A stretch of 64,000 nucleotides of DNA from an uncultured Gammaproteobacteria bacterium (GCA_903928015.1 CAIYPF010000132.1:5138-69137); one strand, 5' to 3'; counted from the stretch's first letter, positions 28,978 through 47,486 are shown. The notes: generated from the letters alone by a model not told the origin. A program made the numbers and translations.

Positions 28978-31623
28978 TCAGGGCGTGAGCGCTTCGGCTT
29001 CCCCGCCCGCCATGCAGGACTGCCGGAACGTGAGGAAAGCGCGATTGATCTCGTGCGGGAAGTGCTGCAGCTCCAGTGGCATCAGGTGCTCGTCCGCGCC
29101 GAGCTCCCGCAACCGGCGTGCGATGGCGCCTATGTCGAAGGCACACACGGAGAGGCCACCGAGCAAGCCGAGAGACAGCGTGTAGCTGTAGGTTTCGGGC
29201 CACAGCGAGGGCAGCCAAACGATGTGGGGCTCGAGCGCCGTGAGCCGCTCCAGCGATTCCTCCTCCAGATAGCGGCCGCTGATCGAGACGCCCGCCTGCC
29301 GCAGTTGTGTGTCGTTCATGCTGTAGCCCAGCAGGCAGAACTCTATCGGCAGGCGTTTCTCGCGCGCGTCCTTGGCGCAGGCGAGCAGCACGTTGTAGCC
29401 CTTCACCTTGCCGATGGCCCCGATCACAAGCACGCGCAGCGGCTCGTCAGGGCGCAGGCGCGGGCGAAGGATCTGCGACTGCTCCGGATTGAACTCCTCG
29501 TGCGGATCGACCGTGAAATCCACGCCGGGCAGATAACGTCCCAGCCGCTCCGCCACGTCTGCATCCGGAACGAAGACGCGGTCCGCCTGCTCGAGCAGGC
29601 CTGCGTTGGCCTCCCGCCATTCGCGGATGCTCTTCACGCCGTATTTGCTGCCGCGCACGGTCAGGCAGTTGTCGCAGCCGCGCTCGTCTGGCTCGCCGCA
29701 GTAACGGCCTTCGTCGTCAGCCAGGTTGATGCGCGGGCAGATCGCCTGGTAGTCGTGGACATCGACGTCCAGGCGGGCGCCGAGGGCTTGCGCCAGCGCT
29801 GCCAGCTGCGCGGGGGCCTGCATGTCGAAGTCCACCGTGCCATGGACGTGGATGCTGTCGATGCCGATCCCTCGCAGCGCCGTGGCCAGCGCCTGCGTAT
29901 CGGCGAGCGGGAAGTCGCCGATGTTGTGCCAGTGCATGCCGGAGGGCTCGCCCAGTCGCACCCGCCCGGCCTCGCCTCGCACCGGACGCAGGAAGAAGAC
30001 CCCGGTGTCCGAGGCGAGCATGCGGCGTGCCTCGTCGCGCAGATGGCGCTCCGCGCCGCCGCCGCGGCTGTGGTTCACCAGCAGCGTGTTGGATCCGCGC
30101 GATTTCCGCTGCAGCCGTGCCCAGTCGAGCCGGGCGCGCGCATCGTGCAGGGGGTCGGCAGCGATGAAATCACGCACGGCGGCGTGATAGCCGGGGTGAC
30201 GCAAGGACATCTGTTCCATCGCATCGGCCACGCGCTTCGCACGCTCGCCCTGGAAGGACACGCTGCCCAGGTGATGCACGAACACATCTGCCGCTACCAG
30301 GTTGTGCCAGCCCGCCGCGATCGCGCGCTGGCAGAGGTCGTTTTCCTCGCCGTAGCCGCGGCCGAACGCCTTTTCGTCGAAGAGTCCGATGCGCTCCAGG
30401 CAATCCCTGCGCAGGTACATGCAGAAGCCCACACCGGTCGGCACCTCCACCGCGATACCCGCGTTCACACTCGCTGCCAGCGCATCCAGTGCCGAGAAAG
30501 GCATCTCGAGCGGGAAGGGGTTGTCGTGGTTCGTGCGGGGATAGCTCGCGATGGTCGCGTTGTTCGAGAGCGGCGTTACGCTGGCCGTGAGCGGGTCCCG
30601 CTGCGCGCAGTCCCGGAGGCGGTCCAGCCAGTTCCCGTAGACCTCGGTATCGGCGTTCAGCAGCACCACGTCGCGGTCGGGATGCAGCCGCATGCCGCGG
30701 TTCGCGGTACCCACGAAGCCCAGATTCGCCTCGTTGCGCAGCAGCGTGCAGGCGCCGCGCGCGGCGAGTTCCTGCAAGGCGAGTGAGAGTTCCGCGTCGG
30801 GGGATGCGTCGTCCACCACCACCAGTTCGAAGGGCGTGTCGTTCAGGGCGCCGAGCACGCTGCGAATGCAGCGCAGGGTTTCATTGCGGCCCTTGTAGAC
30901 GGGAATGACCACGTCCACCTGTGGGGGGGCTGCCTTCTGCAGGGCCTGGAGTTCGTGCCAGTCGGCGGGGACTTCCTCGGGAACGTAGTGCGCCTGGGTT
31001 GCGCCGCCTGCATCGCCTTCCTCGACGATGGGCCGCCCTTCGAGCCGCCCGCGCGATACGTAGTGCAGCAGCGGATCGAGGCCCGAAACAGCCACGTCGG
31101 GATTGGACCGCAGGTAGAAGGCCGCGTCGAACTGCCGGCAGGGAGAGCGCCCGGCGGCTCCGCCCACGCGCAGATAATGCGTCAGCGGGTCGTCACCTGA
31201 GCGGGCAACGTCACGGTTTTGCGAGAGGTAGAAGCCCACGTCGAACCAGGGGCTTGGCGAGACACGGCGGAAGCGGCCCTCGTAGAGGTAATGGATCAGC
31301 GCGTTGTGCTTGCCTGTCCGGGAGCCCGCATGCTCACGATAGAACGAGGGATCGAAGAAAGGCATCGGTTGCCGGCCTTCGCGGTCGCCGAAACGCACGT
31401 AATGCAGCAGGGCATCGTTGCCCGACTCGCAGACGTCGGCGTTCACATCGAGGTACCAGTCGGCGTCGAAGAGCCCGCTTCGGCGGATCAGTCGCGCGAT
31501 GCGCAACGCGTGCAGGCGCTGCAGGCGCAGAACGGCCGCTATGCGCCGCTCCGCGGTAAGGGAGCCGAGCCGGAGCCGGCCGCCGAGGATGCGCAGCTTT
31601 TTCCGGAGGGCCGGTGTCTTCAC
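28978..31623 (-). CDS. multidomain glycosyltransferase: four N-terminal ~37-aa repeats + GT2 domain + C-terminal GT4/GT1-like domain with a Cys cluster
   Basis: The GT2 core is VDVVIPVYKGRNETLRCIRSVL...ELVVVDDASPD...NLGFVGTANRG. The C-terminal Rossmann-like half carries HDYQAICPR...YCGEPDERGCDNC. It overlaps the kpsD stop by 4 nt. Confidence 0.85.
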   Translation of the reverse strand: MKTPALRKKLRILGGRLRLGSLTAERRIAAVLRLQRLHALRIARLIRRSGLFDADWYLDVNADVCESGNDALLHYVRFGDREGRQPMPFFDPSFYREHAGSRTGKHNALIHYLYEGRFRRVSPSPWFDVGFYLSQNRDVARSGDDPLTHYLRVGGAAGRSPCRQFDAAFYLRSNPDVAVSGLDPLLHYVSRGRLEGRPIVEEGDAGGATQAHYVPEEVPADWHELQALQKAAPPQVDVVIPVYKGRNETLRCIRSVLGALNDTPFELVVVDDASPDAELSLALQELAARGACTLLRNEANLGFVGTANRGMRLHPDRDVVLLNADTEVYGNWLDRLRDCAQRDPLTASVTPLSNNATIASYPRTNHDNPFPLEMPFSALDALAASVNAGIAVEVPTGVGFCMYLRRDCLERIGLFDEKAFGRGYGEENDLCQRAIAAGWHNLVAADVFVHHLGSVSFQGERAKRVADAMEQMSLRHPGYHAAVRDFIAADPLHDARARLDWARLQRKSRGSNTLLVNHSRGGGAERHLRDEARRMLASDTGVFFLRPVRGEAGRVRLGEPSGMHWHNIGDFPLADTQALATALRGIGIDSIHVHGTVDFDMQAPAQLAALAQALGARLDVDVHDYQAICPRINLADDEGRYCGEPDERGCDNCLTVRGSKYGVKSIREWREANAGLLEQADRVFVPDADVAERLGRYLPGVDFTVDPHEEFNPEQSQILRPRLRPDEPLRVLVIGAIGKVKGYNVLLACAKDAREKRLPIEFCLLGYSMNDTQLRQAGVSISGRYLEEESLERLTALEPHIVWLPSLWPETYSYTLSLGLLGGLSVCAFDIGAIARRLRELGADEHLMPLELQHFPHEINRAFLTFRQSCMAGGEAEALTP
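31030..31470 (-). repeat. four tandem protein-level repeats (FDxxFYLxxNxDVxxSGxDPLxHYxxxGxxEGRxP) at the N-terminus of the 881-aa glycosyltransferase
   Basis: The four copies are aa 52-87 FDADWYLDVNADVCESGNDALLHYVRFGDREGRQP, aa 89-123, aa 126-161 WFDVGFYLSQNRDVARSGDDPLTHYLRVGGAAGRSP, and aa 165-198 FDAAFYLRSNPDVAVSGLDPLLHYVSRGRLEGRP. Confidence 0.6.
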
Positions 31624-33261: not shown

Positions 33262-34422
33262 TCAGTCTCTGTGGTCGCGGATGATGATGACGATCAGGTT
33301 GACCAGGCCCGCGAGCAGCAGGCTGACGATCAGGAAAACGACCGCGTTGTAGATGCGTCGCGGTTCGAGCGGGTATTCGGGGAGGTTCGGCGACTGCAGC
33401 ACCGAGACTTTTCTGAGCGCCCGCGTGGCCTCGATGCGTCCGTGCTCGAGGGCGGTGAGCGCGGTCTTGTAGAGGTCCTGAGCGAACTCGGATTTGAGTT
33501 GCAGCGCCTGGAACTCCTCGACGGTGCGGTTCAGCGTGTCACCCTCGGGCGAGGCAAGGCGCTTGCGCTCGCGCTCTATCTGCTGCTCGGTTCCCGCGAT
33601 ATGAAGCTCGATCTCCTTCACGCCGGGACTGTCCGGCATCAGGTAGCCCAGCATGGCGTTGCGACGGGTCTGGAGGTCCGTGAGTTCGGATTCCAGCTTT
33701 CCGATGATGTTCTCGAGGTTCTGCGCGGTTCCGGCGGGAGAGACCAGCCCCTTCGCGTTCTGGAAGGCGAGGAGTGCCTGGCGCGCGGCCATGGCGCGTT
33801 CGTTCAGGTCGCCGACCTGTCGCTCGAGGAACGCCACTTGCTCGGCGGCCAGCGCGTGGGCGATGTCGTTCATGTGGCTCTCGCCTTCCTCGACCATCAT
33901 CGTGGTGATGGCGCGGGCGGTTTCCGGGTCGTAGGCCTGTGCTTTCACCACGAGAATGCCGGTGAATTCGTCTACTTCGACGCTGACCCGGCTGAGGAAG
34001 TGTTTGTGGAATTTCTCGATGGGCGTGTCATGGAACCACATGCGCGAGAGCGGGTCGCGGCGCCAGTTGCTGTAGTGGCCGCGCAGGTCGAGTTTGGCGT
34101 CGAGGGCCTTCAGCATGTCGATCGACAGCAGGTGGTCGCGCAGCAGCATCTGGTCGCCGTTCATTCCGGGTATCCCCCCGAGGAACGAGACGTTGGGCAT
34201 GTCGGCGCTGGCGAGGCTCGTGCGCTCGATGATGACGTGGGCTTCGGATACGTAGCGGTCGGATGCGATCAGCGACCAGTACAGGGCCGACAGCAGTGCG
34301 AACCCCAAGGCCGCGCTGAAGACCGTGCCCTGGATGCGGGATGGAGCGAGCAGCCTGCGGGCGGAATCGGCGAGGCGCTGGAGGCCTGGCGACTGCGACA
34401 GGGCGGGTCGGGGCGTGTTCAT
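33262..34422 (-). CDS. kpsE: capsule export inner-membrane protein KpsE (PCP-3 family)
   Basis: 386 aa. It has an N-terminal TM helix followed by SDRYVSEAHVIIE, a long coiled periplasmic region, and a C-terminal TM helix (VVFLIVSLLLAGLVNLIVIII). Its position between kpsT and kpsD supports the call. Confidence 0.85.
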   Translation of the reverse strand: MNTPRPALSQSPGLQRLADSARRLLAPSRIQGTVFSAALGFALLSALYWSLIASDRYVSEAHVIIERTSLASADMPNVSFLGGIPGMNGDQMLLRDHLLSIDMLKALDAKLDLRGHYSNWRRDPLSRMWFHDTPIEKFHKHFLSRVSVEVDEFTGILVVKAQAYDPETARAITTMMVEEGESHMNDIAHALAAEQVAFLERQVGDLNERAMAARQALLAFQNAKGLVSPAGTAQNLENIIGKLESELTDLQTRRNAMLGYLMPDSPGVKEIELHIAGTEQQIERERKRLASPEGDTLNRTVEEFQALQLKSEFAQDLYKTALTALEHGRIEATRALRKVSVLQSPNLPEYPLEPRRIYNAVVFLIVSLLLAGLVNLIVIIIRDHRD

Positions 34423-35084
34423 GCGGCGATGCTTTCCTTGTAGGCGTCGAGCGCGTCGGAGATGTCGTCGAACCAGGTCGCGGTGCCGCCATCGAGCAGG
34501 ATGCCGGACTTGCAGAACGCACGGAGCGTCTCTTCGCCGTGCGAGACCATGATGATTCCCGAGCGGTCGACCAGCTTGCGGAAAGCCTTTGCTGCCTTCG
34601 CGCGGAAGGATGCGTCGCCCGCGCCCGTGACCTCGTCGGAGATGTAGACGTCGAAGTCGAAGGCAAGCGACATCGCAAACTGCAGCCTTGAGCGCATGCC
34701 CGAGGAATAGGTGTTGATGGGCTGCTCGAAGGAGCGGCCTATCGCGGCGAAATCGCGGATCTGCTCTATGCGATCCTCCATGTCGTCTTCGTGCCCGTAG
34801 AGACGGCAGACGAATTTGGAGTTCTGCCGGCCCGTGAGCGAGTTCTGCAGTCCGCCGCCGCGAGCCATGGGCCAGGAGACGCGACAGCGGCGCTCGACGC
34901 GCCCGCGCGTGGGTTCGTCGATGCCGCCGATCAGGCGCAGCAGCGTGGACTTGCCCGCTCCGTTGCGGCCGATCAGGCCCACGTTGGTGCGTGCCGGGAT
35001 CGTGAGGTTGACGCCATTGAGTACCCAGGGCCCGGGCCCATGGTTGGTGGCGTAACGTTTGTAGACGTCTTCGATGATGATCAT
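34419..35084 (-). CDS. kpsT: capsule export ABC transporter ATP-binding protein KpsT
   Basis: 221 aa. GRNGAGKSTLLRLIGGI...SWPMARGGGLQNSLTGRQNSKFVCRLYG...YSSGMRSRLQFAMSLAFDFDVYISDE closely parallels E. coli KpsT. Confidence 0.9.
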   Translation of the reverse strand: MIIIEDVYKRYATNHGPGPWVLNGVNLTIPARTNVGLIGRNGAGKSTLLRLIGGIDEPTRGRVERRCRVSWPMARGGGLQNSLTGRQNSKFVCRLYGHEDDMEDRIEQIRDFAAIGRSFEQPINTYSSGMRSRLQFAMSLAFDFDVYISDEVTGAGDASFRAKAAKAFRKLVDRSGIIMVSHGEETLRAFCKSGILLDGGTATWFDDISDALDAYKESIAA

Positions 35085-35914
35085 TCGCTCACCAGTCGTT
35101 TGGCGAACACCACCTGCAGCGCCAGTCCCAGCACCAGCAGTCCGAGCGCCCAGGCGTGGAGGTAGTTCATGTCAACGCCCGGGATCTCGTGGTAGTAGGG
35201 GGCGAAGGCGAGGCGCAGCGAGTCGAGCCCATGGACCAGCGGGTTCAGGACCAGCCAGTCGCGGTAGGGTGGCGGTATGGCGGCGACCGGGAACATCACG
35301 CCCGAGAGCAGGTAGAGCGGCTGCATCACCATGCTGAGCACCTTTGCCGATTCCGGCACCATCTCGATGAAGGCAGAGGCCGCCGCACCGAAGCCGAGCC
35401 CGATCAGCCACAGGCTGAACAGGCAGTCGAGCACCTTCAGAGGCTCTGCAGGGGTCACGTGGATGCCGAACATCCATGCCCCCGCCAGCAGCAGCACTGC
35501 CACCACCAGCATGATCACGGCCTCCAGCGCCGCCCTGACCAGCACCGTATCCACCGGCAGAACTTGCCGGTAGACGAAGAGCGCGGTGTTGGCGTTGATG
35601 GCGCGCATCGCCTGGCTGCTCGCGTGCTGGAACATGAAATAGCCGATCAGGCCGAGCATGATCCAGAGCGGGGTATCTATGCCACCCACGTGACGCATGC
35701 GGATCACGGAGAACATCACCATCAGGTAGGAGATGTGGAACACCGGGTCGAGCAGCAGCCAGAACCAGCCGGCGCGCTCGCCGAAGAGCCGTCCCGCCGC
35801 TTCCCGCAGGAACAACGCCTTCCAGACCGCAAGCGTCACGGCGAGGGGGCTGCGCGGAATGGAGGGGATGGGATCTGCTATGGACACGTCCGGGCCGTTT
35901 GCTGCGAGGGCCAA
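35081..35914 (-). CDS. kpsM: capsule export ABC-2 permease KpsM
   Basis: VWKALFLREAAGRLFGERAGWFWLLLDP parallels KpsM (EALFLREIRTRFGK..LGYLWAILEP). It has six hydrophobic helices and a C-terminal WNPLVH motif. It overlaps the kpsT start by 4 nt. Confidence 0.85.
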   Translation of the reverse strand: MALAANGPDVSIADPIPSIPRSPLAVTLAVWKALFLREAAGRLFGERAGWFWLLLDPVFHISYLMVMFSVIRMRHVGGIDTPLWIMLGLIGYFMFQHASSQAMRAINANTALFVYRQVLPVDTVLVRAALEAVIMLVVAVLLLAGAWMFGIHVTPAEPLKVLDCLFSLWLIGLGFGAAASAFIEMVPESAKVLSMVMQPLYLLSGVMFPVAAIPPPYRDWLVLNPLVHGLDSLRLAFAPYYHEIPGVDMNYLHAWALGLLVLGLALQVVFAKRLVSE

Positions 35915-36026
35915 GGGGCGCCCGCATCATAACTGCTGCGTGGAACTGCGTTAAGCTCCGGCTGCCCGGCTCAAGGCCCGGACGGTCGCGCGGGTTCAAC
36001 GGATGTAATGCCTGAGGAGGTTTGTC

Positions 36027-36866
36027 GTGTCGGACGCCGACAGATTGGTGATCATCCACAATCACCTCTTCAAGAATGCCGGGACCACCATCGACTGGGC
36101 GCTTGCCAGGGAGCTCGGTTCCGCCTTCGTCGATCACCGTGATGACGCCGACATGCGCCAGGGCGCCGGGTATCTGGGCCCCTATCTGCTCGATAATCCG
36201 GGCGTTTCAGCCCTTTCCACGCATCATCTGTCCCTGCCTCTGCCGGAACTCGCCGGTCTGCGCTTGGCCATGATCATGATGTTCCGCCATCCGGTGGAAC
36301 GCGTGACCTCGGTCTACGAGTTCGAGCGCAAGCAGGAAGGTTCGCAGACGCCCGGTGCTCTCAAAGCCCGCGAATCGAGTTGCAGCGATTACGTTGCCTG
36401 GCGCCTCGAGCCCGGCGTGGGCGCCACCATCCGCAATTTCCAAGTCCGCAAATGCCTGCCGCCGCGCAAGGGTCTGCCCGACAGGCCTGCTGCGGCAGAG
36501 GTGGAGCGGGCGCTCGATGTTGCCCGCTCGGTGGAGATGCTCGGCCTGGTGGAACGCTTCGACGAGAGCATGGTGCTGTTCGAGGAAGCTCTCCGTCCGC
36601 ACTTCCCGGGCATCGACCTCTCGCATGTGCCTCAGAACGTGGGGCAATCCTCGTCGGTATCCGGTGCGCAGCGTGCGCTCAGGCTTCGCGAGACGATCGG
36701 CGACACACTGTATGCGCGACTCGAAGAAGAGAACGCGCCGGATCTGCAGCTGCACGCAGGAGTGGTGGAGGAGTTCGGGCGTCGCTTCGCGGCGCTGCCG
36801 GAGGCCTCTGCCCGGCTCGCGGAGTTCCGCGCCCGCTGCGAGAGACGCCGTAACGCCGGGGGCTGA
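36027..36866 (+). CDS. sulfotransferase (family 2-like)
   Basis: The GTG at 36027 is preceded by gaggagg. The 5'-PSB-like loop is IIHNHLFKNAGTT and the 3'-PB-like motif is FRHPVERVTSVYEF. The latter parallels VRNPFTRAASTYNF in the ORF at 43628..44338. Confidence 0.7.
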   Translation: MSDADRLVIIHNHLFKNAGTTIDWALARELGSAFVDHRDDADMRQGAGYLGPYLLDNPGVSALSTHHLSLPLPELAGLRLAMIMMFRHPVERVTSVYEFERKQEGSQTPGALKARESSCSDYVAWRLEPGVGATIRNFQVRKCLPPRKGLPDRPAAAEVERALDVARSVEMLGLVERFDESMVLFEEALRPHFPGIDLSHVPQNVGQSSSVSGAQRALRLRETIGDTLYARLEEENAPDLQLHAGVVEEFGRRFAALPEASARLAEFRARCERRRNAGG

Positions 36867-38137: not shown

Positions 38138-39960
38138 GGCTGGCTGTCCTGCTGCAGGCCGGCGGAGGCGTCGAGTTGCGCGCGCCAGCGGTGTTCGTGG
38201 ATGACGGCATTCACCAGCGTGACCCGCAGCCGCAGATCGCCCGAGGCGATGCTCTGGAAAGACTGCCGCTCGAGGTGGATCAGTTCAACGCCTGGCTCGT
38301 AGGCGATGTGCAGCCCCGCCTCGCGCAGCGTGAAGCAGAGATCGGAGTCCTCGAAATCCCCGATCAGATAACCGGTATGCCAGCCGCCGATGCGGTCGAA
38401 ATCCGCGCGGCGCATCGCGAGGCAGGCGCCCGTCACGGCCGGCACGCGGGTGAGCTCCCGGTACGGATCGAGGCCGACCGCGAAGCCCATGCCCGGATGA
38501 TCGTTGGTCCAGACATGGAGGTCAGGACGCCAGCGGAACACCATCCCGGCATGTTGTATGGACCCGTCGGGATAGACGAGCCGCGGTGCCACGGCGCCGA
38601 TATCCGCATGTGTGTCCAGCGTCTGCACCAGCGGTTCCAGCCAGCCGGGCGCCTTCGGGAAGACATCGCTGTTCATGAACAGCAGGAGCGGGGCGCGTGC
38701 GTGCGCGGCGCCGAGATTGTTGGCCCCCGAGAAGCCGCGGTTGCGCCCGCCCGAGATCACGCAGAAATCCACGCCGTGCAACAGGTGGTGCTCGCTGGCC
38801 TGGCGGGGGAAGTCCGCCTCGAGACGCGGATCGTCAACCACGTAGAGGATTTCGGCGTGCTCGCGCAGCCATGGGTCGCGCGCGAAGGCCATCAACTGCA
38901 GTTCGACGAAATCCGTGCGCCCGAAGAGCGGCACCACCAGGCTCACCCGCGGCGATGCGGCGCGCGGGCCGAACTCGATCACATGTTCCGTGCTGCGCGC
39001 CCACTGGGCGCGGTCCCGCGATATCAGCGTGGAGACGAGCGGCGCGATGGTCTCGGCGCAGTGGCGGATCTCGGATTGGCGGCTCACGGGCTCCAGCGCC
39101 GCACGCACGATTTCCAGCGCCGAGTCGGGCATGACCTTGACGCGGGTCTTGGAGAGGATATGGATCCGGCTGCCGAACATCGCCTTGAGATAGACCTCGC
39201 CGTGCAGGCGGGTGGTGGTGTCGGCGACCAGGAAGCCGGTGTCTGACCAGGCGCCCGCATAGTCTGCTGCCAGTTCTTGCTGCACGTCACTGCGGAAATA
39301 ACGCCGCGCACCGTGCAGGGCAACCGCGGTGCCGCGCGCGTCTTCGACCCACACCAGTGCATCGGGTTCGCCGAAGAACCAGCCGTTCAGCAGCGTGCAG
39401 CCAGCGGGCTCGGAGGTGGCGCAGTAGTCGACGCTGCCGCGGGCGAAGCCGCACACATCCGTCGATGCGCTGGCGCGTGCGAGCAGCATCTGCCAGACGG
39501 GGGAGTTGGGCGGCAGGAACTTGAGACAGGCGGCACCGGCGTCGCCCAGCGCCGGAAAATTGATGCGCTCGAGCGGAGGGTCGACCTGCAACTCGAGCGC
39601 AATCACGCCGGAATTTCCGCTCACGGCGTCTTTCCAGGCGAGTTCAACGCCGCGCGCCTGCGCCGCGAGGCAGACCATCCCGAAGCCGAGTCCGTTGCCG
39701 GAAGGAAGTGAGCGGCTGGCGGCGACGTCGCCGCGATCGAGGGTGTGTACCTCGGCCTGCAGATCCGTGCCGCCTGCCACGAGGCGCACGGCGATGTGGG
39801 GCGAGAGACGCCAGCCCGCGACGAGCAGCAAGCCCTGTATATGCCAGGCGCCCTCGACATGGACGACGCGGGCCTGTGTGCCGCCGCCGGCATCGGCCCT
39901 GCGGCCAAGTCCCATCGCGCGCAGTCCGCCTTGCAGCCCTGATCCGGTGGAGTCGCTCAT
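38134..39960 (-). CDS. glycosyltransferase: unknown N-terminal domain + GT2 domain
   Basis: The C-terminal half has VSLVVPLFGRTDFVELQL...ILYVVDDPRLE...NRGFSGANNLG...FMNSDVFP...FEDSDLC, which are GT-A/GT2 hallmarks. Confidence 0.8.
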   Translation of the reverse strand: MSDSTGSGLQGGLRAMGLGRRADAGGGTQARVVHVEGAWHIQGLLLVAGWRLSPHIAVRLVAGGTDLQAEVHTLDRGDVAASRSLPSGNGLGFGMVCLAAQARGVELAWKDAVSGNSGVIALELQVDPPLERINFPALGDAGAACLKFLPPNSPVWQMLLARASASTDVCGFARGSVDYCATSEPAGCTLLNGWFFGEPDALVWVEDARGTAVALHGARRYFRSDVQQELAADYAGAWSDTGFLVADTTTRLHGEVYLKAMFGSRIHILSKTRVKVMPDSALEIVRAALEPVSRQSEIRHCAETIAPLVSTLISRDRAQWARSTEHVIEFGPRAASPRVSLVVPLFGRTDFVELQLMAFARDPWLREHAEILYVVDDPRLEADFPRQASEHHLLHGVDFCVISGGRNRGFSGANNLGAAHARAPLLLFMNSDVFPKAPGWLEPLVQTLDTHADIGAVAPRLVYPDGSIQHAGMVFRWRPDLHVWTNDHPGMGFAVGLDPYRELTRVPAVTGACLAMRRADFDRIGGWHTGYLIGDFEDSDLCFTLREAGLHIAYEPGVELIHLERQSFQSIASGDLRLRVTLVNAVIHEHRWRAQLDASAGLQQDSQP

Positions 39961-40006: not shown

Positions 40007-42457
40007 TCAGCGCTGCGTGCGCAACTGTGCCATCAGCACGCCTATGGCTGGGCTTTCCATGCCCCGGGCCCGGCCCGCTTCCAGCATCTCCAGTGCCTCT
40101 GCCCCACGCCCCAGGCGGATCAGCAGTCGCGCGTGATCCGCTGCCATGTGCGGCCTGCAGTGCTCGCTGGCGAGCGATGTGCGTTGGTGTTCCAGTGCCT
40201 CTTCCATGCGCCCCAGAGCGATCAGCGCCTCACCCCACTGGTGGTGAACGGCTGCCCGCATCGTGGCCGGGTTGCGCTCCAGCGCGGATTGCAGCGTGGC
40301 GTTGCCCTCGGTCTCCTGCCCGCCGCGCAGCAATGCCAGCCCCAGGGGAACCCAGGCCCAGGGGTAGTGCTGGTTCAGGGCGATGCAATGCCGCAGATCC
40401 GAGATCGCCTGTTCCCACTCGCGCGAGGCCATCTTCCAGGTGCCGCGGCGGAACCACGGCAGCCACCAGTCGGCGTTCAGCGCGATGGTGCGTTCCGTCC
40501 ACTCGAGCGCCGCCGCGGCCTTGCCGGTTTTGTGGAGCGCCTCGGCATAGGCGATGAGCAGTCCGGGATCGCGGCTGCAGGAGTCCACGGCCTCGGCGTA
40601 GAGCGCGAGCACCTGGTCTGTATCGCCGTTGCCCTCCGCGAGCGCGATCATCTTGCGCCACACGGAGCCGGCGTCTCCGGCGCTCGCCAGCAGGCCGCGG
40701 AAGAGGGCAAGCGCGGTGTCCGTGTCGCCGGACTGCGCGGCGGTTTCCGCGCGCTGCCATGTCTCGAGCAACTGCGCCGTGGAGCCGTCAGCCGCTTGCG
40801 CCTCCGGAGGGCTGACGCCCGCGATGGCGCAGAGCTCTGCGTAGAGTGACATCGCCTCGTCCAGCGTTTCGCCGATCTCGGCGGCTGCCGCGGAGTCATG
40901 GTCGAAAGCGCGGCCTTGCTGGTGCACCAGATCGTCGTCGTAGAACTCGCCTGCCCGCGCCGGATCGATGCGGGAGGCCGACACCAGAGGGGCGCACTCC
41001 AGCCGCAGCGCCGACTCCACCTGCGCGATGAATGTCTCGCGCGGCGCGTCGAAACTCACGATCGGGAAGGGCGCCCTGCGGTGCTCCGCGAGCAGGGCGC
41101 GGTTGTAGCCGATCCACAGACCGAGTCCGTCGCGAAGTTCGATGCGCTGCGAGTCGCGGAAGAACAGCGAGAGCGCCACCGCCATCGGGTGACGGAACAC
41201 CCCGATGCGCAGCGGATTGGGTATGGCCTCGCGCCAGAAGCCGAGCGTGAGCAGCGTGCGCGGGTCCTTGAACATCGGCGGTTTGCCGGTGGTGGAGATG
41301 CGCGTGAGGATCGCGCCGCGCTGGCGGCGGTGCTCTTCGGTTGCCTGCGTCAGCGCGCCTGCCGGAAGCCGGTTCCAGGCCGCGTCATGGCGCTCCAGCA
41401 CGGCATCGTTCAGCCGCACCACCTCGGTGTCTTCACGGTTGCCGCGTTGGTTGTACGGGTCCCAGAGACTCACGATCCCCAGCTCGAAACCCGCCCCCGC
41501 CAGCATCCCGGTGAGACAACTCGTGCCGCTCCTGTGCATGCCGAGCACGAGCAGCGGCGGGTCTTCCACCCGTGGCGTGACGAGGGCCGGGAACAGATGG
41601 CTGCTCTCCTGCCGCGGGCGTCCCAGATAAAGCGGTTTGCGCCAGAGGCCGCGGTAGGGTTTGCCGCGGATGGATTCGTATTCGGCGGACATCCGCGCGA
41701 ATCCTGCGGCCGGATCGGTGGAGTTGGTGGCGACGCCGCCGTGGAACTGGTGGAAGGTGGCTTCGCCCAGCAGCACGATCGGCGTGATCGACGGGCTCTC
41801 GAATGCACGGTTCAGGAAATCGAGGTTGGCGAGCCCGCCGCCCGGGCTCGTGAAGGCCTCGTCGAAGCCGCCGAGCGCGAGGAAGCTCTCGCGCCGCATG
41901 CAGAAGCAGTTGCTTTCGTTCAGCGGGCCCACGAAGCCGTTGCGGTACGAACCGCCGGGCACGGAAATATCAAACAGCCGGTAAGGGTTCGATTCCCAGG
42001 GCACCGTGGCGAGCAGGCGGTCTTCCGCGGTCTGGTCGTAGCCTTCCTGCATGGCCTCGTTCTGCAGCTTGTGCCCGAGGTGCATGCCCAGCGTGATCGC
42101 GAAGGGATCCGGGCACAGGCGCGTTGCCTCGAGAAATCCGCCCACGATGCCGGGCGAGGGGATGCGCGCCCCGTCGATCATCAGCGCCACGAAGGGCGTG
42201 CTTGCTGCCGCCACGGCCGCATTGATGGCCTTGCAGGGCGATACCGCAGCGGTTTGCAGATGCGTGTAGCGGACATTCGCGCCACGTGCGGCGATATCGG
42301 CCGGATCCATGGGGCTGCCGGAGCCGTGTTCCAGCACTTCTACCGTGTAGTCGTCCTGGCTCACATCGAGTTGGCAGCGAGGGTCCAGCGCGAACAGTGT
42401 CCGCGGTGCCTCGCGGCGCATGTCGTGGAGGATGAGGATGACGGTGAGTTGGCTCAT
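40007..42457 (-). CDS. three-domain protein: GT-A-like N-terminal domain + sulfotransferase domain + C-terminal TPR repeats
   Basis: N-terminal: LTVILILHDMRREAPRTL...FVALMIDGARIP...FDEAFTSPGGGLANLDF. Middle: PPLLVLGMHRSGTSCLTGML...GVFRHPMAVALSLFFR (PAPS-loop-like motifs). C-terminal ~300 aa: Ala/Leu-rich 34-aa-type repeats (ALALFRGLLA..., AYAEALHKTGKAAAALEW..., GEALIALGRMEEALEH...). Confidence 0.8.
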   Translation of the reverse strand: MSQLTVILILHDMRREAPRTLFALDPRCQLDVSQDDYTVEVLEHGSGSPMDPADIAARGANVRYTHLQTAAVSPCKAINAAVAAASTPFVALMIDGARIPSPGIVGGFLEATRLCPDPFAITLGMHLGHKLQNEAMQEGYDQTAEDRLLATVPWESNPYRLFDISVPGGSYRNGFVGPLNESNCFCMRRESFLALGGFDEAFTSPGGGLANLDFLNRAFESPSITPIVLLGEATFHQFHGGVATNSTDPAAGFARMSAEYESIRGKPYRGLWRKPLYLGRPRQESSHLFPALVTPRVEDPPLLVLGMHRSGTSCLTGMLAGAGFELGIVSLWDPYNQRGNREDTEVVRLNDAVLERHDAAWNRLPAGALTQATEEHRRQRGAILTRISTTGKPPMFKDPRTLLTLGFWREAIPNPLRIGVFRHPMAVALSLFFRDSQRIELRDGLGLWIGYNRALLAEHRRAPFPIVSFDAPRETFIAQVESALRLECAPLVSASRIDPARAGEFYDDDLVHQQGRAFDHDSAAAAEIGETLDEAMSLYAELCAIAGVSPPEAQAADGSTAQLLETWQRAETAAQSGDTDTALALFRGLLASAGDAGSVWRKMIALAEGNGDTDQVLALYAEAVDSCSRDPGLLIAYAEALHKTGKAAAALEWTERTIALNADWWLPWFRRGTWKMASREWEQAISDLRHCIALNQHYPWAWVPLGLALLRGGQETEGNATLQSALERNPATMRAAVHHQWGEALIALGRMEEALEHQRTSLASEHCRPHMAADHARLLIRLGRGAEALEMLEAGRARGMESPAIGVLMAQLRTQR

Positions 42458-42568: not shown

Positions 42569-43564
42569 CTACAGCGTCGCCCGGACCTTTCGGAAAGCCT
42601 CGGCGAGCAGCGCGTGACCTTCAGTCGAGCAGAGCCACTGGTCACAGGGAGCGCCCCGCTCCCGGAAACTCTTTTCGACGTTGTCTGCATCGGGCAGCGC
42701 GATGCGCGGGTAGGCGCTGAGGGCCCGCCGTGCCGAGCGCTCCACTTCGCTGCCGCGCAGGCTGAACGGGCGCATGCAGGCGGAGATGCGCCGCTGTGCC
42801 TCGGCGAGCAGCACCTGCATGCCGGCGTCGGATTTGCGCAAGCGGAGCAGTGTCTGGCGCACGTTGGCGTAGCGCAGTACCCCGGCCTCCTGTGCCGCCG
42901 CGTTCAGTGCACGCATGAACTCCGCGAACCAGAGCTCCATCGTGATGTTGGCGCGCAGCGGCGTGCCGAAGCGGGTGAGTCCGGGAGCGTCACAGGCAAT
43001 GGCGAAGGCGTCGAAGATGTCGCCCACGGCCCTTGCCGCGTCATAGTCCACGACGCGTATCGCCTCGGCGCCGAAGGCGCTGCGGTAGCCGTCGAGCACC
43101 CTGCAAGGATTCAGCAGCGGGCTTGCGAACGGTGCCGTGAGATGTGGGTTGGCATATTCGTGGAAGCCCAGAACGCCCCCGTGCTTCACGTGCTCCTGCC
43201 AGGAGGACAGCAGAAGTTCTGTGGCATCACGGAGGAAGTACACGACGCTCACGGCGCGCGCCGCAGGCAGAGCGGTTTGCAAGCGGCGCACACCCGGTGC
43301 GCGCAGCAGGTCGAAGTTTTCCGAGGAGAGGATCAGTAGCTCCGCGTCCGATGCCGCAAGCGGTTCGAGCAGTGCCGCCAGCGCTGCCTCGTCCCCCGAC
43401 CGGGCGACATCTGCGACCTTGTGGTGCGCGAAGCCGGCGTCCAGTCCCGCGCTGCAGTAGTCCACGCCTACCGAGCGCAGTGCCTCGCGGTTCTCGTGGA
43501 GCCGGGTCTGTATGTAGGTGGTACCCGTCTTGTGCGGGCCGATATGCAGGACGATGCGGGACAT
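42569..43564 (-). CDS. sulfotransferase-like P-loop protein
   Basis: MSRIVLHIGPHKTGTTYIQTRL. It is a paralogue of the ORF at 14560..15252. It sits inside the capsule locus. Confidence 0.6.
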   Translation of the reverse strand: MSRIVLHIGPHKTGTTYIQTRLHENREALRSVGVDYCSAGLDAGFAHHKVADVARSGDEAALAALLEPLAASDAELLILSSENFDLLRAPGVRRLQTALPAARAVSVVYFLRDATELLLSSWQEHVKHGGVLGFHEYANPHLTAPFASPLLNPCRVLDGYRSAFGAEAIRVVDYDAARAVGDIFDAFAIACDAPGLTRFGTPLRANITMELWFAEFMRALNAAAQEAGVLRYANVRQTLLRLRKSDAGMQVLLAEAQRRISACMRPFSLRGSEVERSARRALSAYPRIALPDADNVEKSFRERGAPCDQWLCSTEGHALLAEAFRKVRATL

Positions 43565-43627: not shown

Positions 43628-44338
43628 TCAGCCCGAAGGGCCGAACACGGTCGGCGGCGCCCGCGGGTAGTCGAACTGGTCGAAATCGATGCTGTACTTC
43701 TCGAGGATCCTGTTCAGGACCTTGGGGCGTTCGCTGATGCCCTGCGCGCTGCCGTCGCCGCCGCTCTGGTTGGCGTGCGGAATCTGGATGCGCTCCTTGA
43801 TGTGCGTGGGTGCATCGATGACATCCAGGATATGCCTGAGATCCTCGCCCAGCGTCTCGAGCTTGCCCACGAAGGATGGCAGCAGCTTGCTGTTGAAGGC
43901 CTCGCGCAGCCAGTAGGCTTGAGGACGGAAGATCTGGTCAGGCCCGTGGCCCTCGTCCCAGATATCGGAGAGCACGTAATCGTCGAAACTCTGGAAGGCG
44001 CGCATGCGCTCGATGAAGCTGTTGGTGGGTCCGGGCCATTTGCGCAGGAAGTTGTAGGTGGATGCGGCGCGGGTGAAGGGATTGCGCACGAAGCTGAAGG
44101 TGAAATACCGGTTCCAGGTCACCGCGCCGATCAGGCTGCGGATCTCGGCTGCGGTGGAGTGTTTGGCGAGGCCGAAGCGCTTCAGGTACGCGCCCTGGAT
44201 TTCCTCGCCGAACACCGTACCGCCGATCTCCTGATCGCAGTAGTTCGTGAGCACGCCGAGCGCCGCCGTCACCGAGGTGCCGGCAGCCTTGGGGACGTGT
44301 ACGAAGACGAAGCGGTAGCTGTTGTTGATGATCGTCAT
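43628..44338 (-). CDS. sulfotransferase (family 2-like)
   Basis: The ATG at 44338 gives MTIINNSYRFVFVHVPKAAGTSV (5'-PSB-like loop), then FVRNPFTRAASTYNF (3'-PB-like motif). The start overlaps the stop of the upstream 63-aa ORF (ATGA). Confidence 0.8.
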   Translation of the reverse strand: MTIINNSYRFVFVHVPKAAGTSVTAALGVLTNYCDQEIGGTVFGEEIQGAYLKRFGLAKHSTAAEIRSLIGAVTWNRYFTFSFVRNPFTRAASTYNFLRKWPGPTNSFIERMRAFQSFDDYVLSDIWDEGHGPDQIFRPQAYWLREAFNSKLLPSFVGKLETLGEDLRHILDVIDAPTHIKERIQIPHANQSGGDGSAQGISERPKVLNRILEKYSIDFDQFDYPRAPPTVFGPSG

Positions 44339-44526
44339 GCGGAGGGGACTTTCCGCAGGGCCTCGAGGATGGACTTCATTGCCGGCAGAGGTACCCACAC
44401 CTCGTGGCTGGGCACGGCCTTGCCGTCGACTTCCAGCCGCATGAATTGCATGCGGGCCACGCCGTTGTGGATGGCGATGTTGCTCACGCCGTCGACGAGG
44501 AATACAGGTGGCTTGTCTTGTTGCAT
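44335..44526 (-). CDS. small hypothetical protein (63 aa), translationally coupled to the downstream sulfotransferase
   Basis: The ATG at 44526 has GGAG 6 nt upstream. The stop TGA overlaps the ATG of the next gene. I recognise no family. Confidence 0.55.
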   Translation of the reverse strand: MQQDKPPVFLVDGVSNIAIHNGVARMQFMRLEVDGKAVPSHEVWVPLPAMKSILEALRKVPSA

Positions 44527-44558
44527 ATGTGCTCCGGTTCAGTTGCCAGTGTTGCTGC

Positions 44559-47486
44559 TCAGCGGTATGCGAGCGAGCGGTTATCCAGTGTGGTGAAGAG
44601 TTCGGCGTCTTGCAGTGCAGCCTGCATCTCGCGCACGCCCAGCGTGAAGCCGTAATGCGACTCGGTGAATTCCATCGCCCGCGCCGACATCGCGCTCCAG
44701 GCGTCTTCCGCGCCGTAGAGGCGGGTGATCGCCTGCGCCCAGTCCTCGGGCTTGCCGGCGATGGCGGCCTCCGCGCCGTCGCCCAGAGGGATGCCCTCGG
44801 CGGCGATCTGCGAGAGCACGCAGGGCACGCCGTGCGCCAGCGCGCCGATCACCTTGCCCTTGATGCCGGCGCCGCTTTGCAGCGGTGCCACGAAGACGCG
44901 GCAGTGGTCGTAGACATCGGCGACATCCGCTACCCAGCCTTCCACGATCACGTTGTCGTGCTTCTCGGCGAGGTCGATGAGCTTCTGCGGCACCTTGCTG
45001 CCGTAGATGCGGAAGTTCACACCCGGCAGCGAGGCAGAGATCAATGGCATCACCCGCGCCACGAACCACTCCACGGCCTCGACGTTGGGCGCGTGGTTGT
45101 AGCCACCGAGGAAGGCGATGTCGCGGCGGGTGTCCCACGCGGGCACCGTGGCCGAGGTCTCGCAGACCCAGGGGCAGCGAGCCACCCGCGTGCTGTCGAG
45201 GTTGTGGGACAGGATCACGGCCTTCTCGAGTTCCGTGTAGGTGAGCACCAGATCGGCCTTCTGCATGACCGCGAGTTCGGTCTTGCGGGTGTCGACGGCC
45301 TTGGCGAGGTCCTCCGGGATCTTCGAGTTCACCGCCGCGCGCAGTTCGCGCAGGAAGTGCAGGTCGGCGTTCATCAGCACGACCTTGGCGTTCGGTGCGT
45401 GCTTGCGGATGGTGTCGATGCACTCCTGCGCCACGTAATAGCGCGTGATGTAGACGAGGTCGAACTCCGCGCCACGCTCTTCGATGAGGTCGTTCACGCT
45501 GGCGGCGAAGGGGCTGTAGACGCACTCGATGCCCATGCGCTGCAGGGTTTCGGTGTAACGGCCCATGTAGGCCATGTTCTGCGGCACGAAGGTGCACTTG
45601 AAGCCCAGCGCCTGCAGCATCCGCATTTCCTGGATGGCGGCGTAGCTCCCGGCGTTCTGGTCGGGCATGGGCGTTTCGGCGTCGATCACCAGCGCACGGA
45701 ACTCGATGTTGCGGTCCTTCGCCAGATCGGGTCCTACGCCTTCCTTGCCGTTGTTGCGACAGGCACCGATCCAGCGGCCCTTGAACTTGGGACGGTTGAT
45801 TTCCTGGAAGCGCTTGATGCCGGAGGAGACGCTGGTGCCGCTGCTCACGCCCTCGAAGTGGATGATCTGCGAGAAGGGCGTGTACACCGTCTTGAAGCCG
45901 CGCTCGCGCACCTGGAACGCGAGGTCCGTGTCCTCGAAGTAGGCGGGGATGTAGGTCTCGCTGAAGCCGCCGATGTCGTTCCACAGTTCACGCGGCAGCA
46001 TCACGCAGGCGCCCGAGAGGTAATCGGCCTGGCGGGCGTAGCAGTAGCGCGGGTCTGCGGGGTTGGCCTTGCGGCCGTAGTTCCAGGGGTTCCCCGAGCT
46101 CCAGACGATGCCGCCTGCTTCCTGCAGCGTGCCGTCGGGGTAGAGGAGCTTGGCACCGGCCATGCCGACGCCGTCGAAGTGCTCGAAGCTGGCGAGCAGT
46201 TCGTCGATCCAGCCGGCGGTGACTTCGGTGTCGTTGTTCAGCATCACGATGTAGTCGCCGCGCGCGACGGACGCGCCGCGGTTGCAGGCGAGGATGAAGC
46301 CCTGGGCTTCCTCGTTGCGCAGGTACTGGATGCCGCTCACCAGTTCGGGCACGCGGATGCTGTCGTCTTTGGAGCCGTCGTCCACGATGATCACTTCGAA
46401 GCTGGCACGGTTGGGTGCCACCAGCAGCGACAGCAGGCAGTGGTAGGTGACGTGGAACTTGTTGTGGATCGGGATGACGATCGAGGCGACAGGGTGATCG
46501 ACCACGGGGAAGGCGAGCGGGGCGAAATCGGTATCGGCCGCGTTGAAACCACGCACCAGACGCGCGTGTGCCATATGCAGTTGGCTGATGCGGGCGGCGA
46601 TGCCGGGGAGATCCGCACCCGGACGCGAGCCTTCCGAGGCCAGGGCTTCCAGCGAGCGCGACAGCGCCTCGTAGCGGAAACCCGCAGCCACGGCGAGCGC
46701 GGGCTTCATGCCCTCGCGGGCGTGGCGCAGCAGTGACTCCTCGGGCGTGAGGTGTTGCGGCATCACCATCGCGGCGCTGCCCAGCGATACGGCGTCCTCG
46801 CGCAGCCGCACCTCGAATCCGTGCGGGCGGCCATCGAATGCGGCGCGCGGCACGGGAACCCGGAATCGCACCAGGCCGGGGACGTCCCGGTCCAGCCAGG
46901 CGTGGCCGCCTATCGTCACCTCGCCGTTGTCGATCAGTTCCAGTTCGTCGAGGTCGCAGGTGGTGTCCATGAGGACACAGCTGCCCTCGAGCGCCGAGCC
47001 CGCGAGCCGCATATCGCCCTGCACCCCGCGCGAGGCGCGCAAGGTCCTGGGACAGCCGGCCAGCAGGAAGCCGGTACGCAGTTCCCGCACTTCGATGGTG
47101 TGGGGCTGGTCGTCGAACAGCGTTGCGGGAATGGGGATGTCGAAGCTGTATTTGCCGTCGCCGATGCCGGCCTCGAGCAGGTCCTGACGGAAGCGGGACG
47201 CCATGCCATCGGCTACGGGAACGCCGTCTGCCAGCACTTCGAAGTCGAGACGGTTATCGGCGTCGCGGGCGTCGTAAAGCCAGCCCGAGATGCGGCGCGG
47301 TCCGCAGGCATCGAGACTGCCGGATATGCCGGCGGCCGGGGCGTCGTCGAAGCCGTCGTCGGTGGGCGCTGCCACCACCGGGGGCGCGACCGCTGCCTGC
47401 GCGTCGGAGCTGCTTGCCAGCTCGATGCGCTGGATCCTGAATTCGGTGTCACTCATGGCTGGGCTCTGCATCTTGGCGGAGGTCAT
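44559..47486 (-). CDS. multidomain glycosyltransferase: N-terminal duplicated beta-rich domain + GT2 + C-terminal GT4-like domain
   Basis: The GT2 core is VASIVIPIHNKFHVTYHCLLSLL...EVIIVDDGSKDDS...NRGASVARGDYIVMLNNDTEV...YFEDTDLAF. The C-terminal GT-B-like half is FLGGYNHAPNVEAV...VAPLQSGAGIKGKVIGALAHGVPCV. The start is uncertain: ATGs at 47486, 47471 and 47456, none with a good RBS. Confidence 0.85.
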   Translation of the reverse strand: MTSAKMQSPAMSDTEFRIQRIELASSSDAQAAVAPPVVAAPTDDGFDDAPAAGISGSLDACGPRRISGWLYDARDADNRLDFEVLADGVPVADGMASRFRQDLLEAGIGDGKYSFDIPIPATLFDDQPHTIEVRELRTGFLLAGCPRTLRASRGVQGDMRLAGSALEGSCVLMDTTCDLDELELIDNGEVTIGGHAWLDRDVPGLVRFRVPVPRAAFDGRPHGFEVRLREDAVSLGSAAMVMPQHLTPEESLLRHAREGMKPALAVAAGFRYEALSRSLEALASEGSRPGADLPGIAARISQLHMAHARLVRGFNAADTDFAPLAFPVVDHPVASIVIPIHNKFHVTYHCLLSLLVAPNRASFEVIIVDDGSKDDSIRVPELVSGIQYLRNEEAQGFILACNRGASVARGDYIVMLNNDTEVTAGWIDELLASFEHFDGVGMAGAKLLYPDGTLQEAGGIVWSSGNPWNYGRKANPADPRYCYARQADYLSGACVMLPRELWNDIGGFSETYIPAYFEDTDLAFQVRERGFKTVYTPFSQIIHFEGVSSGTSVSSGIKRFQEINRPKFKGRWIGACRNNGKEGVGPDLAKDRNIEFRALVIDAETPMPDQNAGSYAAIQEMRMLQALGFKCTFVPQNMAYMGRYTETLQRMGIECVYSPFAASVNDLIEERGAEFDLVYITRYYVAQECIDTIRKHAPNAKVVLMNADLHFLRELRAAVNSKIPEDLAKAVDTRKTELAVMQKADLVLTYTELEKAVILSHNLDSTRVARCPWVCETSATVPAWDTRRDIAFLGGYNHAPNVEAVEWFVARVMPLISASLPGVNFRIYGSKVPQKLIDLAEKHDNVIVEGWVADVADVYDHCRVFVAPLQSGAGIKGKVIGALAHGVPCVLSQIAAEGIPLGDGAEAAIAGKPEDWAQAITRLYGAEDAWSAMSARAMEFTESHYGFTLGVREMQAALQDAELFTTLDNRSLAYR

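Follow-up and report, generated by a model that had tools for sequence, protein, structure and literature searches.

Positions 28978-47486 of a 64,000-nucleotide stretch of DNA from an uncultured Gammaproteobacteria bacterium (GCA_903928015.1, CAIYPF010000132.1; the whole stretch is called "the window" below) hold an 18.5-kb locus in which a kps-type capsule export system stands beside a set of glycosyltransferases (GTs) and four sulfotransferase domains. This locus is predicted to make, and probably does make, a sulfated surface polysaccharide, either a capsule or a tightly associated exopolysaccharide (EPS), by a route dependent on an ATP-binding cassette (ABC) transporter. An earlier note on this DNA had proposed a heavily sulfated capsule; the sulfated product is retained here as the likely reading, while the word "heavily" reflects a count of genes and is not. 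Three rival readings each have some support, less than this one.

The gene layout was defined by a listing of open reading frames (ORFs) and a coding test based on the G+C content of third codon positions (GC3), and it was compared with what an independent gene caller gives for the same metagenome contigs in ENA. The gene caller returns the same gene set at the coordinates given below; it starts ST256 20 codons later (236 aa, 43628-44338). The features of the locus are the following.

35081..35914, minus strand: kpsM, ABC-2 permease, 277 aa (Pfam ABC2_membrane, NCBIfam KpsM)
34419..35084, minus strand: kpsT, ABC ATPase, 221 aa (Pfam ABC_tran)
33262..34422, minus strand: kpsE, inner-membrane polysaccharide co-polymerase (PCP-3 type), 386 aa (TIGR01010)
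31620..33257, minus strand: kpsD, outer-membrane polysaccharide export protein (OPX), 545 aa (Poly_export, SLBB)
28978..31623, minus strand: GT881, 881 aa, last gene of the kps operon (Glycos_transf_2)
35915..36026: divergent intergenic region between kpsM and the ST279 gene, 112 bp
36027..36866, plus strand: ST279, divergent Sulfotransfer_2-type protein, 279 aa (homologues, motifs, model)
36887..38137, minus strand: GT416, GT4 glycosyltransferase, 416 aa (Pfam)
38134..39960, minus strand: GT608, N-terminal domain plus GT2, 608 aa (Pfam)
40007..42457, minus strand: F816 fusion, 816 aa, whole ORF
41573..42457, minus strand: F816 N-terminal domain, GT-A-like, aa 1-295 (weak Glyco_tranf_2_2)
40868..41557, minus strand: F816 middle domain, Sulfotransfer_3 type, aa ~301-530 (Pfam)
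40088..40774, minus strand: F816 C-terminal tetratricopeptide (TPR) repeats, aa ~562-790 (Pfam)
42569..43564, minus strand: ST331, divergent Sulfotransfer_1-like protein, 331 aa (family profile, model)
43628..44398, minus strand: ST256, Sulfotransfer_2 family, 256 aa (Pfam)
44559..47486, minus strand: GT975, GT2 plus linker plus GT4, 975 aa, first gene of the minus-strand biosynthesis operon

The kps operon runs on the minus strand in the order kpsM, kpsT, kpsE, kpsD, GT881. Overlaps of 4 nt join kpsM to kpsT, kpsT to kpsE and kpsD to GT881, and a gap of 4 nt separates kpsE from kpsD, exactly as described when the tight coupling of kpsMTED, with GT881 directly after it, was first pointed out; the export genes are translationally coupled with GT881. 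A second minus-strand unit comprises GT975, ST256, ST331, the F816 fusion, GT608 and GT416, in this order. The ST279 gene, divergent from kpsM, is the lone plus-strand gene between the two units, with spacers of 112 bp and 20 bp only to the flanking operons. The G+C content is 64-70% across the whole window, and the composition shows no break at the locus.

The Kps-type export assignment of the earlier note is borne out, all four proteins being identified by Pfam or NCBIfam models. KpsM matches Pfam ABC2_membrane (2.7e-14) and displays several hydrophobic segments in a hydropathy scan; its best NCBIfam match is the KpsM model (4.4e-39, below the equivalog cut-off). KpsT matches ABC_tran (9e-19), its best NCBIfam matches being polysaccharide/teichoic-acid exporters (Wzt/TagH, ~1e-41 to 1e-32), and is of the short form (221 aa) devoid of a C-terminal carbohydrate-binding extension. 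KpsE is matched over its full length by TIGR01010 (BexC/CtrB/KpsE, 2e-77), with 260.8 bits against a trusted cut-off of 437.5 bits, and ends with a hydrophobic C-terminal segment. As they score below the equivalog cut-offs, KpsM and KpsE are diverged members of their families. KpsD, the N-terminus of which is hydrophobic, exceeds the Pfam cut-offs for Poly_export (2e-13), SLBB_2 (2e-13) and SLBB (1e-9). The locus thereby has in common with the group 2 capsules of E. coli and Neisseria the KpsM/T/E/D set and its tight operon coupling, and its soluble cytoplasmic GTs fit the same ABC-dependent logic. In contrast to those systems, it lacks KpsC/KpsS, which make the poly-Kdo (3-deoxy-D-manno-octulosonic acid) linker, KpsF/KpsU, and a nearby ops/JUMPStart element; moreover, the sulfation predicted here is no feature of classical group 2 systems.

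The four sulfotransferase domains all possess the two motifs that bind 3'-phosphoadenosine 5'-phosphosulfate (PAPS). Their 5'-phosphosulfate-binding (5'-PSB) loops, of the form xK/RxGT[TS], read FKNAGTT (K16) in ST279, GMHRSGTS (R309) in F816, HIGPHKTGTT (K12) in ST331 and HVPKAAGTS (K37) in ST256. The four loops named in the earlier note are thus all present, and each is paired with an R-x7-S 3'-phosphate-binding (3'-PB) motif: R87/S95 in ST279, R422/S430 in F816, R112/S120 in ST331 and R105/S113 in ST256. That note had also proposed that its claim would fall if the domains failed to match sulfotransferase profiles or lacked the Lys/Arg/Ser contacts to PAPS. The claim does not fall on this count. 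Two of the domains pass the Pfam thresholds. ST256 is matched over its full length by Sulfotransfer_2 (5.4e-18, 66.5 bits against a cut-off of 22), and the shorter version of the gene caller has a precomputed match to the same family. The F816 middle domain matches Sulfotransfer_3 over residues ~301-457 (8.3e-7, 29.9 bits against a cut-off of 27), and its HRSGTS sequence is of the RxG type characteristic of PF13469/NodH (PMC11625862). The TPR tail of F816 is found with TPR_19 (1.4e-13), TPR_14 (5.5e-12) and TPR_2 (4e-8).

The other two, ST279 and ST331, do not match directly; their homologues match Sulfotransfer_2 and Sulfotransfer_1, respectively, and their K/R and R-x7-S residues are invariant or kept in at least 90% of family members. 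Direct searches of Pfam (to E=10), NCBIfam and PDB sequences give no usable match for either: the best Pfam match of ST279 is Sulfotransfer_1 at E=0.3 only, and ST331 has none. Their case is therefore built on homologue alignments, profile comparisons, structure prediction and synteny. For ST279, 397 homologues were found, and in a family alignment of 26 sequences K16, H66, R87 and S95 are invariant; 14 of these 26 match Sulfotransfer_2 (best 3.4e-9), and an hhalign comparison of ST279 with ST256 aligns both PAPS motifs (6e-5). The AlphaFold model of ST279 has a mean predicted local distance difference test score (pLDDT) of 89.8, and its top Foldseek matches are heparan sulfate (HS) 2-O-sulfotransferases (4ndz/3f5f) and 6-O-sulfotransferases (5t05), with E=3.5e-4 and probability 1.0. 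The ST279 family profile has no significant match in the PDB, the HS 2-O-sulfotransferase (HS2ST) being reached at E=0.46 only.

In the ST331 family, the HxGxHKT loop is invariant, and R112 and S120 are kept in at least 90% of the members. The best PDB matches of the family profile are the sulfotransferase 3rnl (1.4e-3) and the sulfotransferase domain of NDST1, and 7 of 25 members match Sulfotransfer_1. The AlphaFold model of ST331 (pLDDT 93.3) retrieves sulfotransferases as three of its four top Foldseek matches (3rnl, 7r0o, 1nst); for both proteins the top PDB matches are sulfotransferases with probability 1.0 and E ~4e-4. The family is very large, its profile finding 3,815 representatives at 50% identity with E<=1e-30 and 26,795 with E<=1e-10. 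Some of its proteins (P0163, P0166, P0189 and others) reach 800-1,700 aa and carry two to four tandem copies of a sulfotransferase-like domain. Taken with cysD/N/C neighbours in other genomes (see below), the homologue matches, PAPS motifs and AlphaFold models support the placement of ST279 and ST331 in the sulfotransferase fold. Animal HS 2-O- and 6-O-sulfotransferases and NDST have the 5'-PSB and 3'-PB motifs in common with them and are the best, or among the best, structural matches, although identity reaches only 13-16% and TM-scores 0.4-0.5. In further contrast, the animal enzymes reside in the Golgi, whereas ST279 and ST331 are predicted to be soluble and cytoplasmic.

The only similarity detectable among the four domains is that between ST279 and ST256 (27% identity, E=0.003). 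Being mutually almost unrelated in sequence, they represent four lineages and not recent duplicates. The ST279 and ST331 families were considered as possible paralogues, which was rejected upon a negative profile-profile comparison (E=0.088, probability below 1%); they form separate lineages. Candidate catalytic bases are conserved in both, namely H66/H67 in ST279 and E82 (within S80-E82) in ST331. A hydropathy scan finds no hydrophobic segment in any GT or sulfotransferase of the locus, from which it follows that sulfation would take place in the cytoplasm, where PAPS is located.

Some of these domains, ST331 and ST279 above all, might instead be P-loop-fold enzymes with another activity, such as kinases or other group transferases, or inactive scaffolds, which would reduce the real sulfation steps to one or two. 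Both proteins lie under all curated Pfam, NCBIfam and PDB sequence thresholds, their TM-scores are only 0.39-0.52, P-loop GTPases and kinases occur among the Foldseek matches of ST331, and their catalytic bases are candidate residues only. Their loop, however, is of the PSB type (xKxGT[TS]) and not a Walker A GK[ST]; the R-x7-S motif for the 3'-phosphate is conserved in both families; the best sequence-profile and fold matches are sulfotransferases for both; their homologues match Sulfotransfer_1 or Sulfotransfer_2 directly; and homologues are linked to cysD/N/C and adenosine 5'-phosphosulfate (APS) kinase. An activity other than sulfotransfer is thus very unlikely.

The locus holds up to seven GT domains; as single-domain calls, four of these exceed their Pfam cut-offs, the remaining ones being weaker. 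GT975 begins with an N-terminal domain (aa 1-333), followed by a GT2 domain (Glycos_transf_2, 1.3e-21), a linker, and a GT4 domain (Glyco_trans_1_4, 3e-22). GT416 is a GT4 enzyme (Glyco_trans_1_4, 7e-16; Glycos_transf_1, 5e-15; Glyco_transf_4, 4e-14). GT608 harbors a GT2 domain (Glycos_transf_2, 1e-11; Glyco_tranf_2_3, 2e-11) behind an N-terminal part (aa 1-335) with no Pfam match. In GT881, Glycos_transf_2 covers aa 238-408 (2e-14), and the C-terminal half is weakly GT4-like (Glyco_trans_4_4, 1.9e-5, below cut-off). The N-terminus of F816 displays only a weak GT-A match (Glyco_tranf_2_2, 4.5e-4, below cut-off); this domain alone is matched by ORFs near ST279 homologues in four other loci (L013, L032, L069 and L078; 1e-49 to 1e-80). 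Accordingly, of the four further GT proteins that had been listed, those starting at 36887, 38134 and 44559 pass Pfam, while the N-terminal domain of the protein at 40007 remains a weak call. Within the N-terminal repeat region of GT881 (aa 1-232), aa 50-200 contain three to four FDxxFYLxxNxDV...G.DPLxHY repeats with no Pfam match. The GT2 domain of GT975 resembles the chondroitin synthase K4CP (1.6e-10). A glycosaminoglycan-like backbone (heparosan or chondroitin) was nevertheless rejected: this resemblance and that to the HS-sulfotransferase fold are generic, and no UDP-glucose dehydrogenase or glycosaminoglycan synthase is present.

The substrates, the order of the steps, the degree of sulfation and the final fate of the product as capsule or EPS can be proposed as follows. 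Soluble cytoplasmic GTs would build the glycan at the inner membrane face, on a lipid acceptor that the locus does not specify; these would be GT975 as the probable backbone polymerase, GT881, GT608, GT416 and the GT-A-like N-terminus of F816. In the cytoplasm, the four soluble PAPS-dependent domains, namely ST279 and ST256 (Sulfotransfer_2-like), the Sulfotransfer_3 domain of F816, and ST331 (Sulfotransfer_1-like), would O-sulfate the glycan, probably targeting different positions or different residues. Genes elsewhere in the genome would supply PAPS and nucleotide sugars, and the TPR tail of F816 would probably hold the enzyme complex together. KpsM and KpsT would then pump the polyanion over the inner membrane, and KpsE and KpsD would conduct it through the periplasm and the outer membrane.

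Part of what such a pathway requires is missing from the window. Pfam scans of all coding-like ORFs of its 64 kb find no kpsC/S, kpsF/U or genes for nucleoside diphosphate (NDP)-sugars, nor do they find Wzx, Wzy, WaaL or any second exporter, flippase, ligase or polymerase. No homologue of CysD, CysN or CysC occurs in any of its six-frame ORFs at E<1e-6. The gene caller's Pfam table for a few kb past the right end of the window likewise contains none of kpsC/S, kpsF/U, NDP-sugar genes or cysDNC. The list of missing genes given in the earlier note (kpsC/S, kpsF/U, nucleotide-sugar synthesis, cysDNC/PAPS) is hence correct for the window and a few kb beyond. KpsC/S being absent from the available sequence, the locus is not to be filed as a complete group 2 system.

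Several points weigh against a sulfated capsule. The genes of PAPS synthesis are absent from the window, and the locus has no kpsC/S or other initiating transferase, lipid-anchor genes or NDP-sugar genes, so that the pathway cannot be closed from the window. A study of Vibrio takes PAPS-synthesis and sulfotransferase genes occurring together as a hallmark of sulfated-polysaccharide clusters (PMC11641403); the window does not combine cysD/N/C and sulfotransferases in one cluster. KpsE and KpsM fall below their NCBIfam equivalog cut-offs, ST279 and ST331 are themselves below every curated family threshold, and the Foldseek TM-scores of their models (0.39-0.52) are modest. In the O-antigen cluster of Aeromonas salmonicida, a gene with a sulfotransferase domain lies beside Wzt and the polymerase, yet no sulfate was found in the glycan (PMC4483657), which means that the presence of such a gene is no guarantee of a sulfated product. 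Finally, the sulfated product is predicted here from the genes of an uncultured metagenomic lineage.

The genomic context of the ST279 family was surveyed by searching GTDB with the ST279 alignment, each species being represented by a single genome. The resulting 80 loci were all selected through ST279, and the proteins of the window, together with the family profiles of ST279 and ST331, served as queries against their six-frame ORFs. A GT975 homologue (E<1e-100, covering the GT2-linker-GT4 core) is found in 43 of the 80 loci, and in 31 of the 50 that measure at least 18 kb. In 27 of these 43 loci, no more than 300 bp lie between it and the ST279 homologue, with a median gap of 60 bp. The pair spans at least seven phyla: Pseudomonadota, Desulfobacterota, Chloroflexota, Actinomycetota, Deinococcota, Cyanobacteriota and Planctomycetota. 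This conserved pairing with ST279 makes GT975 probably the backbone polymerase. Among species representatives, the best ST279 matches are at 70% identity (a "delta proteobacterium" metagenome-assembled genome, MAG) and 68% (a Rubrivivax sp. MAG); these closest homologues lie on short contigs, with methyltransferases and a Sulfotransfer_3 gene as neighbours.

With the profiles used, a single sulfotransferase ORF is detected in 65 of the 80 loci, and four in only two, both from Microbulbifer. The density of sulfotransferases that the earlier note had called unusual is therefore rare in this sample, in which the choice of all loci through ST279 introduces a bias. The two Microbulbifer loci, L015 of M. 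mangrovi DD-13 and L077 of M. flavimaris WRN-8, carry two ST279-type and two ST331-type genes around a GT975 homologue; both strains are cultured marine polysaccharide degraders. Genes for sulfate activation occur beside members of both families. Homologues of cysD/N/C adjoin ST279 homologues in eight loci (L007, L018, L020, L021, L035, L050, L073 and L076), and in Shewanella sp. WXL01 (L085, 6995-20984) an ST331 homologue lies in one operon with cysD, cysN and cysC. This operon starts with a GT975-like GT2-GT4 gene, a Sulfotransfer_3 gene, the ST331-like gene, a 202-aa gene with no assignment and three GT2 genes, and continues with cysD, cysN, a CitMHS transporter, cysC and a DHHA1 phosphoesterase, in this order. 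The strain is cultured and offers a practical system for tests of the ST331 family. At positions 8443-11878 of locus L088, an ST279 homologue (55% identity) directly follows dTDP-rhamnose synthesis genes and precedes a WcbI capsule gene. Rhamnose is the sulfated sugar of the Cobetia capsule (PMC11766843), and in the Vibrio study the position of the genes led to the proposal that rhamnose is sulfated (PMC11641403).

The survey bears on the possibility that two systems lie side by side, in which kpsMTED-GT881 exports one polymer, perhaps unsulfated, and the GT975-GT416 operon makes with ST279 a different product, a sulfated glycoconjugate that might be a glycolipid, a protein glycan or a chain resembling O-antigen and that is handled by machinery encoded elsewhere. 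The biosynthesis genes and kpsMTED indeed form separate transcription units, with ST279 as a lone plus-strand gene between them. KpsE is found in only two of the 80 loci and KpsD in none; the ST279/GT975 module, lacking KpsE in 78 of 80 and KpsD in 80 of 80, thus has no inherent tie to Kps-type export across the outer membrane. KpsS of Mesorhizobium loti and mycobacterial Stf0 illustrate, in the account given in PMC11625862, that glycolipids can be substrates of bacterial sulfotransferases. On the other hand, neither another exporter nor a flippase, polymerase or ligase (Wzx, Wzy, WaaL) is found in the window, and the two operons abut, with spacers of 112 bp and 20 bp only. An ABC exporter ATPase occurs in 22 of the 80 loci, which places ABC-2 exporters near the module. 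Moreover, the two loci with KpsE, from Sulfitobacter noctilucae NB-68 (L067) and an alphaproteobacterial MAG (L068), join KpsM/T/E with GT975 and ST279 homologues, as here. Two independent products are quite unlikely.

Sulfation could also be sparse or terminal. In that case, one or several of the sulfotransferases would add a cap at the non-reducing end that stops growth or marks the chain for export, akin to the caps (methyl, phosphate or Kdo) found on ABC-dependent O-antigens, and the polymer would be lightly sulfated. In keeping with this, the ST279 family mostly provides a single sulfotransferase adjoining a GT2-GT4 protein (median gap 60 bp), often near Wzm/Wzt-type exporters, and the A. 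salmonicida gene lies between wzt and the terminator/polymerase gene wbbB in a cluster for which no sulfate was seen in the bulk repeat (PMC4483657). The ABC ATPases adjoining the GT975 homologues in Caballeronia sp. (L050) and Dyella spp. (L063 and L078) carry a C-terminal extension of 210-240 aa, like that of the cap-recognising Wzt of O-antigen systems, and a sulfate cap is possible in these three. The KpsT of the window, in contrast, is short and has no carbohydrate-binding extension, four divergent sulfotransferases exceed the needs of a cap, the characterised kps-type sulfated capsules have sulfate in every repeat (PMC11766843), and the literature searched documents no terminal sulfate cap. 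A cap is therefore unlikely here, and a sulfated polysaccharide exported by KpsMTED is preferred.

Beyond this reading, the survey hints tentatively that the locus is an elaborated, capsule-exported version of a widespread and undescribed cassette, formed by a GT975-type GT2-GT4 polymerase and an ST279-type sulfotransferase. Enzymes of the ST331 or Sulfotransfer_3 type, ABC-2 exporters and cysD/N/C would often stand beside such a cassette. We regard this as possible, with the balance of probability somewhat on the other side.

Kps loci that contain sulfotransferases and produce sulfated capsules have already been published, and the concept is thus not new: it is a rare but documented kind of bacterial capsule, and the locus works like the known kind. 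The cluster of Cobetia marina KMM 1449 comprises kpsETMD, kpsSC, cysNC/D/Q and sulfotransferase genes (PMC11766843), and that of Vibrio sp. KMM 8419 comprises kpsDME/T/S, three sulfotransferases and cysNDC and, as in the window locus, has no kpsC (PMC11641403). In both cases the sulfated capsule has been proven by nuclear magnetic resonance (NMR), whereas the window locus is known from its genes. The window has in common with both clusters the combination, in one locus, of a Kps-type ABC exporter, multiple GTs and PAPS-type sulfotransferases. It differs from them, in that they carry cysN/C, cysD, cysQ, NDP-sugar genes (rml, man), and kpsS and/or kpsC in cis, none of which is found in the window. 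It differs also by its four sulfotransferase domains, two of which are outside curated models and one of which is fused to a GT-A-like domain and TPR repeats, and by its origin in a high-GC uncultured lineage, Cobetia and Vibrio being cultured marine isolates.

Synechan of Synechocystis reportedly uses Wzx/Wzy-type assembly, in contrast to the window locus, in which assembly would be ABC-transporter dependent with KpsED. The synechan (xss) cluster of Synechocystis PCC 6803 otherwise resembles the window, with several sulfotransferases in a polysaccharide locus and a sulfated extracellular polymer (PMC8205485). A characterised enzyme of bacterial origin that sulfates polysaccharide is KpsS of M. 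loti (Townsend & Keating 2008, cited in PMC11625862). As described there, it is PAPS-dependent and acts on a capsular-type polysaccharide in a Gram-negative host, as predicted for the window enzymes; it is a single enzyme against a four-enzyme locus. Examples are few: a review of 2024 puts the bacterial genera with reported sulfated polysaccharides at only about six (PMC11625862), and a 2026 paper has bacterial sulfated polysaccharides made exclusively by cyanobacteria (PMC13390465).

The complete KpsMTED set and the four different sulfotransferases, gathered in 18.5 kb, make the locus a good candidate for the heterologous production of a new sulfated glycan, a class of polymers valued for its glycosaminoglycan-like bioactivities. 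The more novel lead lies outside the original finding, in the conserved GT2-GT4/ST279 cassette and the large ST331 family. Given their linkage to PAPS genes, this pair and this family suggest glycan sulfation to be much commoner in bacteria than the literature implies, and they point to specific uncharacterised enzyme families. If the cassette does make a sulfated glycan, sulfated surface polysaccharides would be common across bacteria and not confined to a few genera, and the ST331 lineage, which comprises thousands of clusters at 50% identity and lacks a curated model, would represent a major unrecognised family of bacterial carbohydrate sulfotransferases.

As for expression signals, the 112-bp divergent region likely carries both promoters. 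It contains the sole sigma-70-like match of the locus (TTAACG-17-TATGAT, 35954-35926, minus strand). This match ends 12 nt ahead of the TTG start of kpsM, which implies either a very short leader or a mis-called start. On the other side, a GGAGG Shine-Dalgarno sequence precedes the GTG start of the ST279 gene at 36027. The ops/JUMPStart element (GGCGGTAG) occurs three times in the window, not above chance, and none of these occurrences is less than 12 kb from the locus. No Rfam family or tRNA is found in the window, and a terminator scan returns fewer sites than shuffled controls. Next to GT975, an 802-aa minus-strand ORF (47449-49857) was dismissed as spurious, since it is non-coding by GC3; the real gene there is that of a plus-strand M28 peptidase.

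Three further regions of the window deserve mention. A 563-aa flagellin (11236-12927, minus strand) possesses normal Flagellin_N and Flagellin_C domains and, at its center, a match to Peptidase_M9 (collagenase) at the Pfam cut-off (6.9e-6), and may have proteolytic activity. A sulfatase (15259-16977, minus strand) encoded about 12 kb away from the sulfotransferase locus harbors the C-terminal domain of N-sulphoglucosamine sulphohydrolases and could turn over sulfated glycans. Genes for an aminotransferase, a member of the TauE/SafE sulfite-exporter family and an FAD oxidoreductase of the DAO type succeed one another at 49758-53120 (plus strand), with the M28 peptidase gene between them and the capsule locus; their products may act in organosulfonate metabolism.

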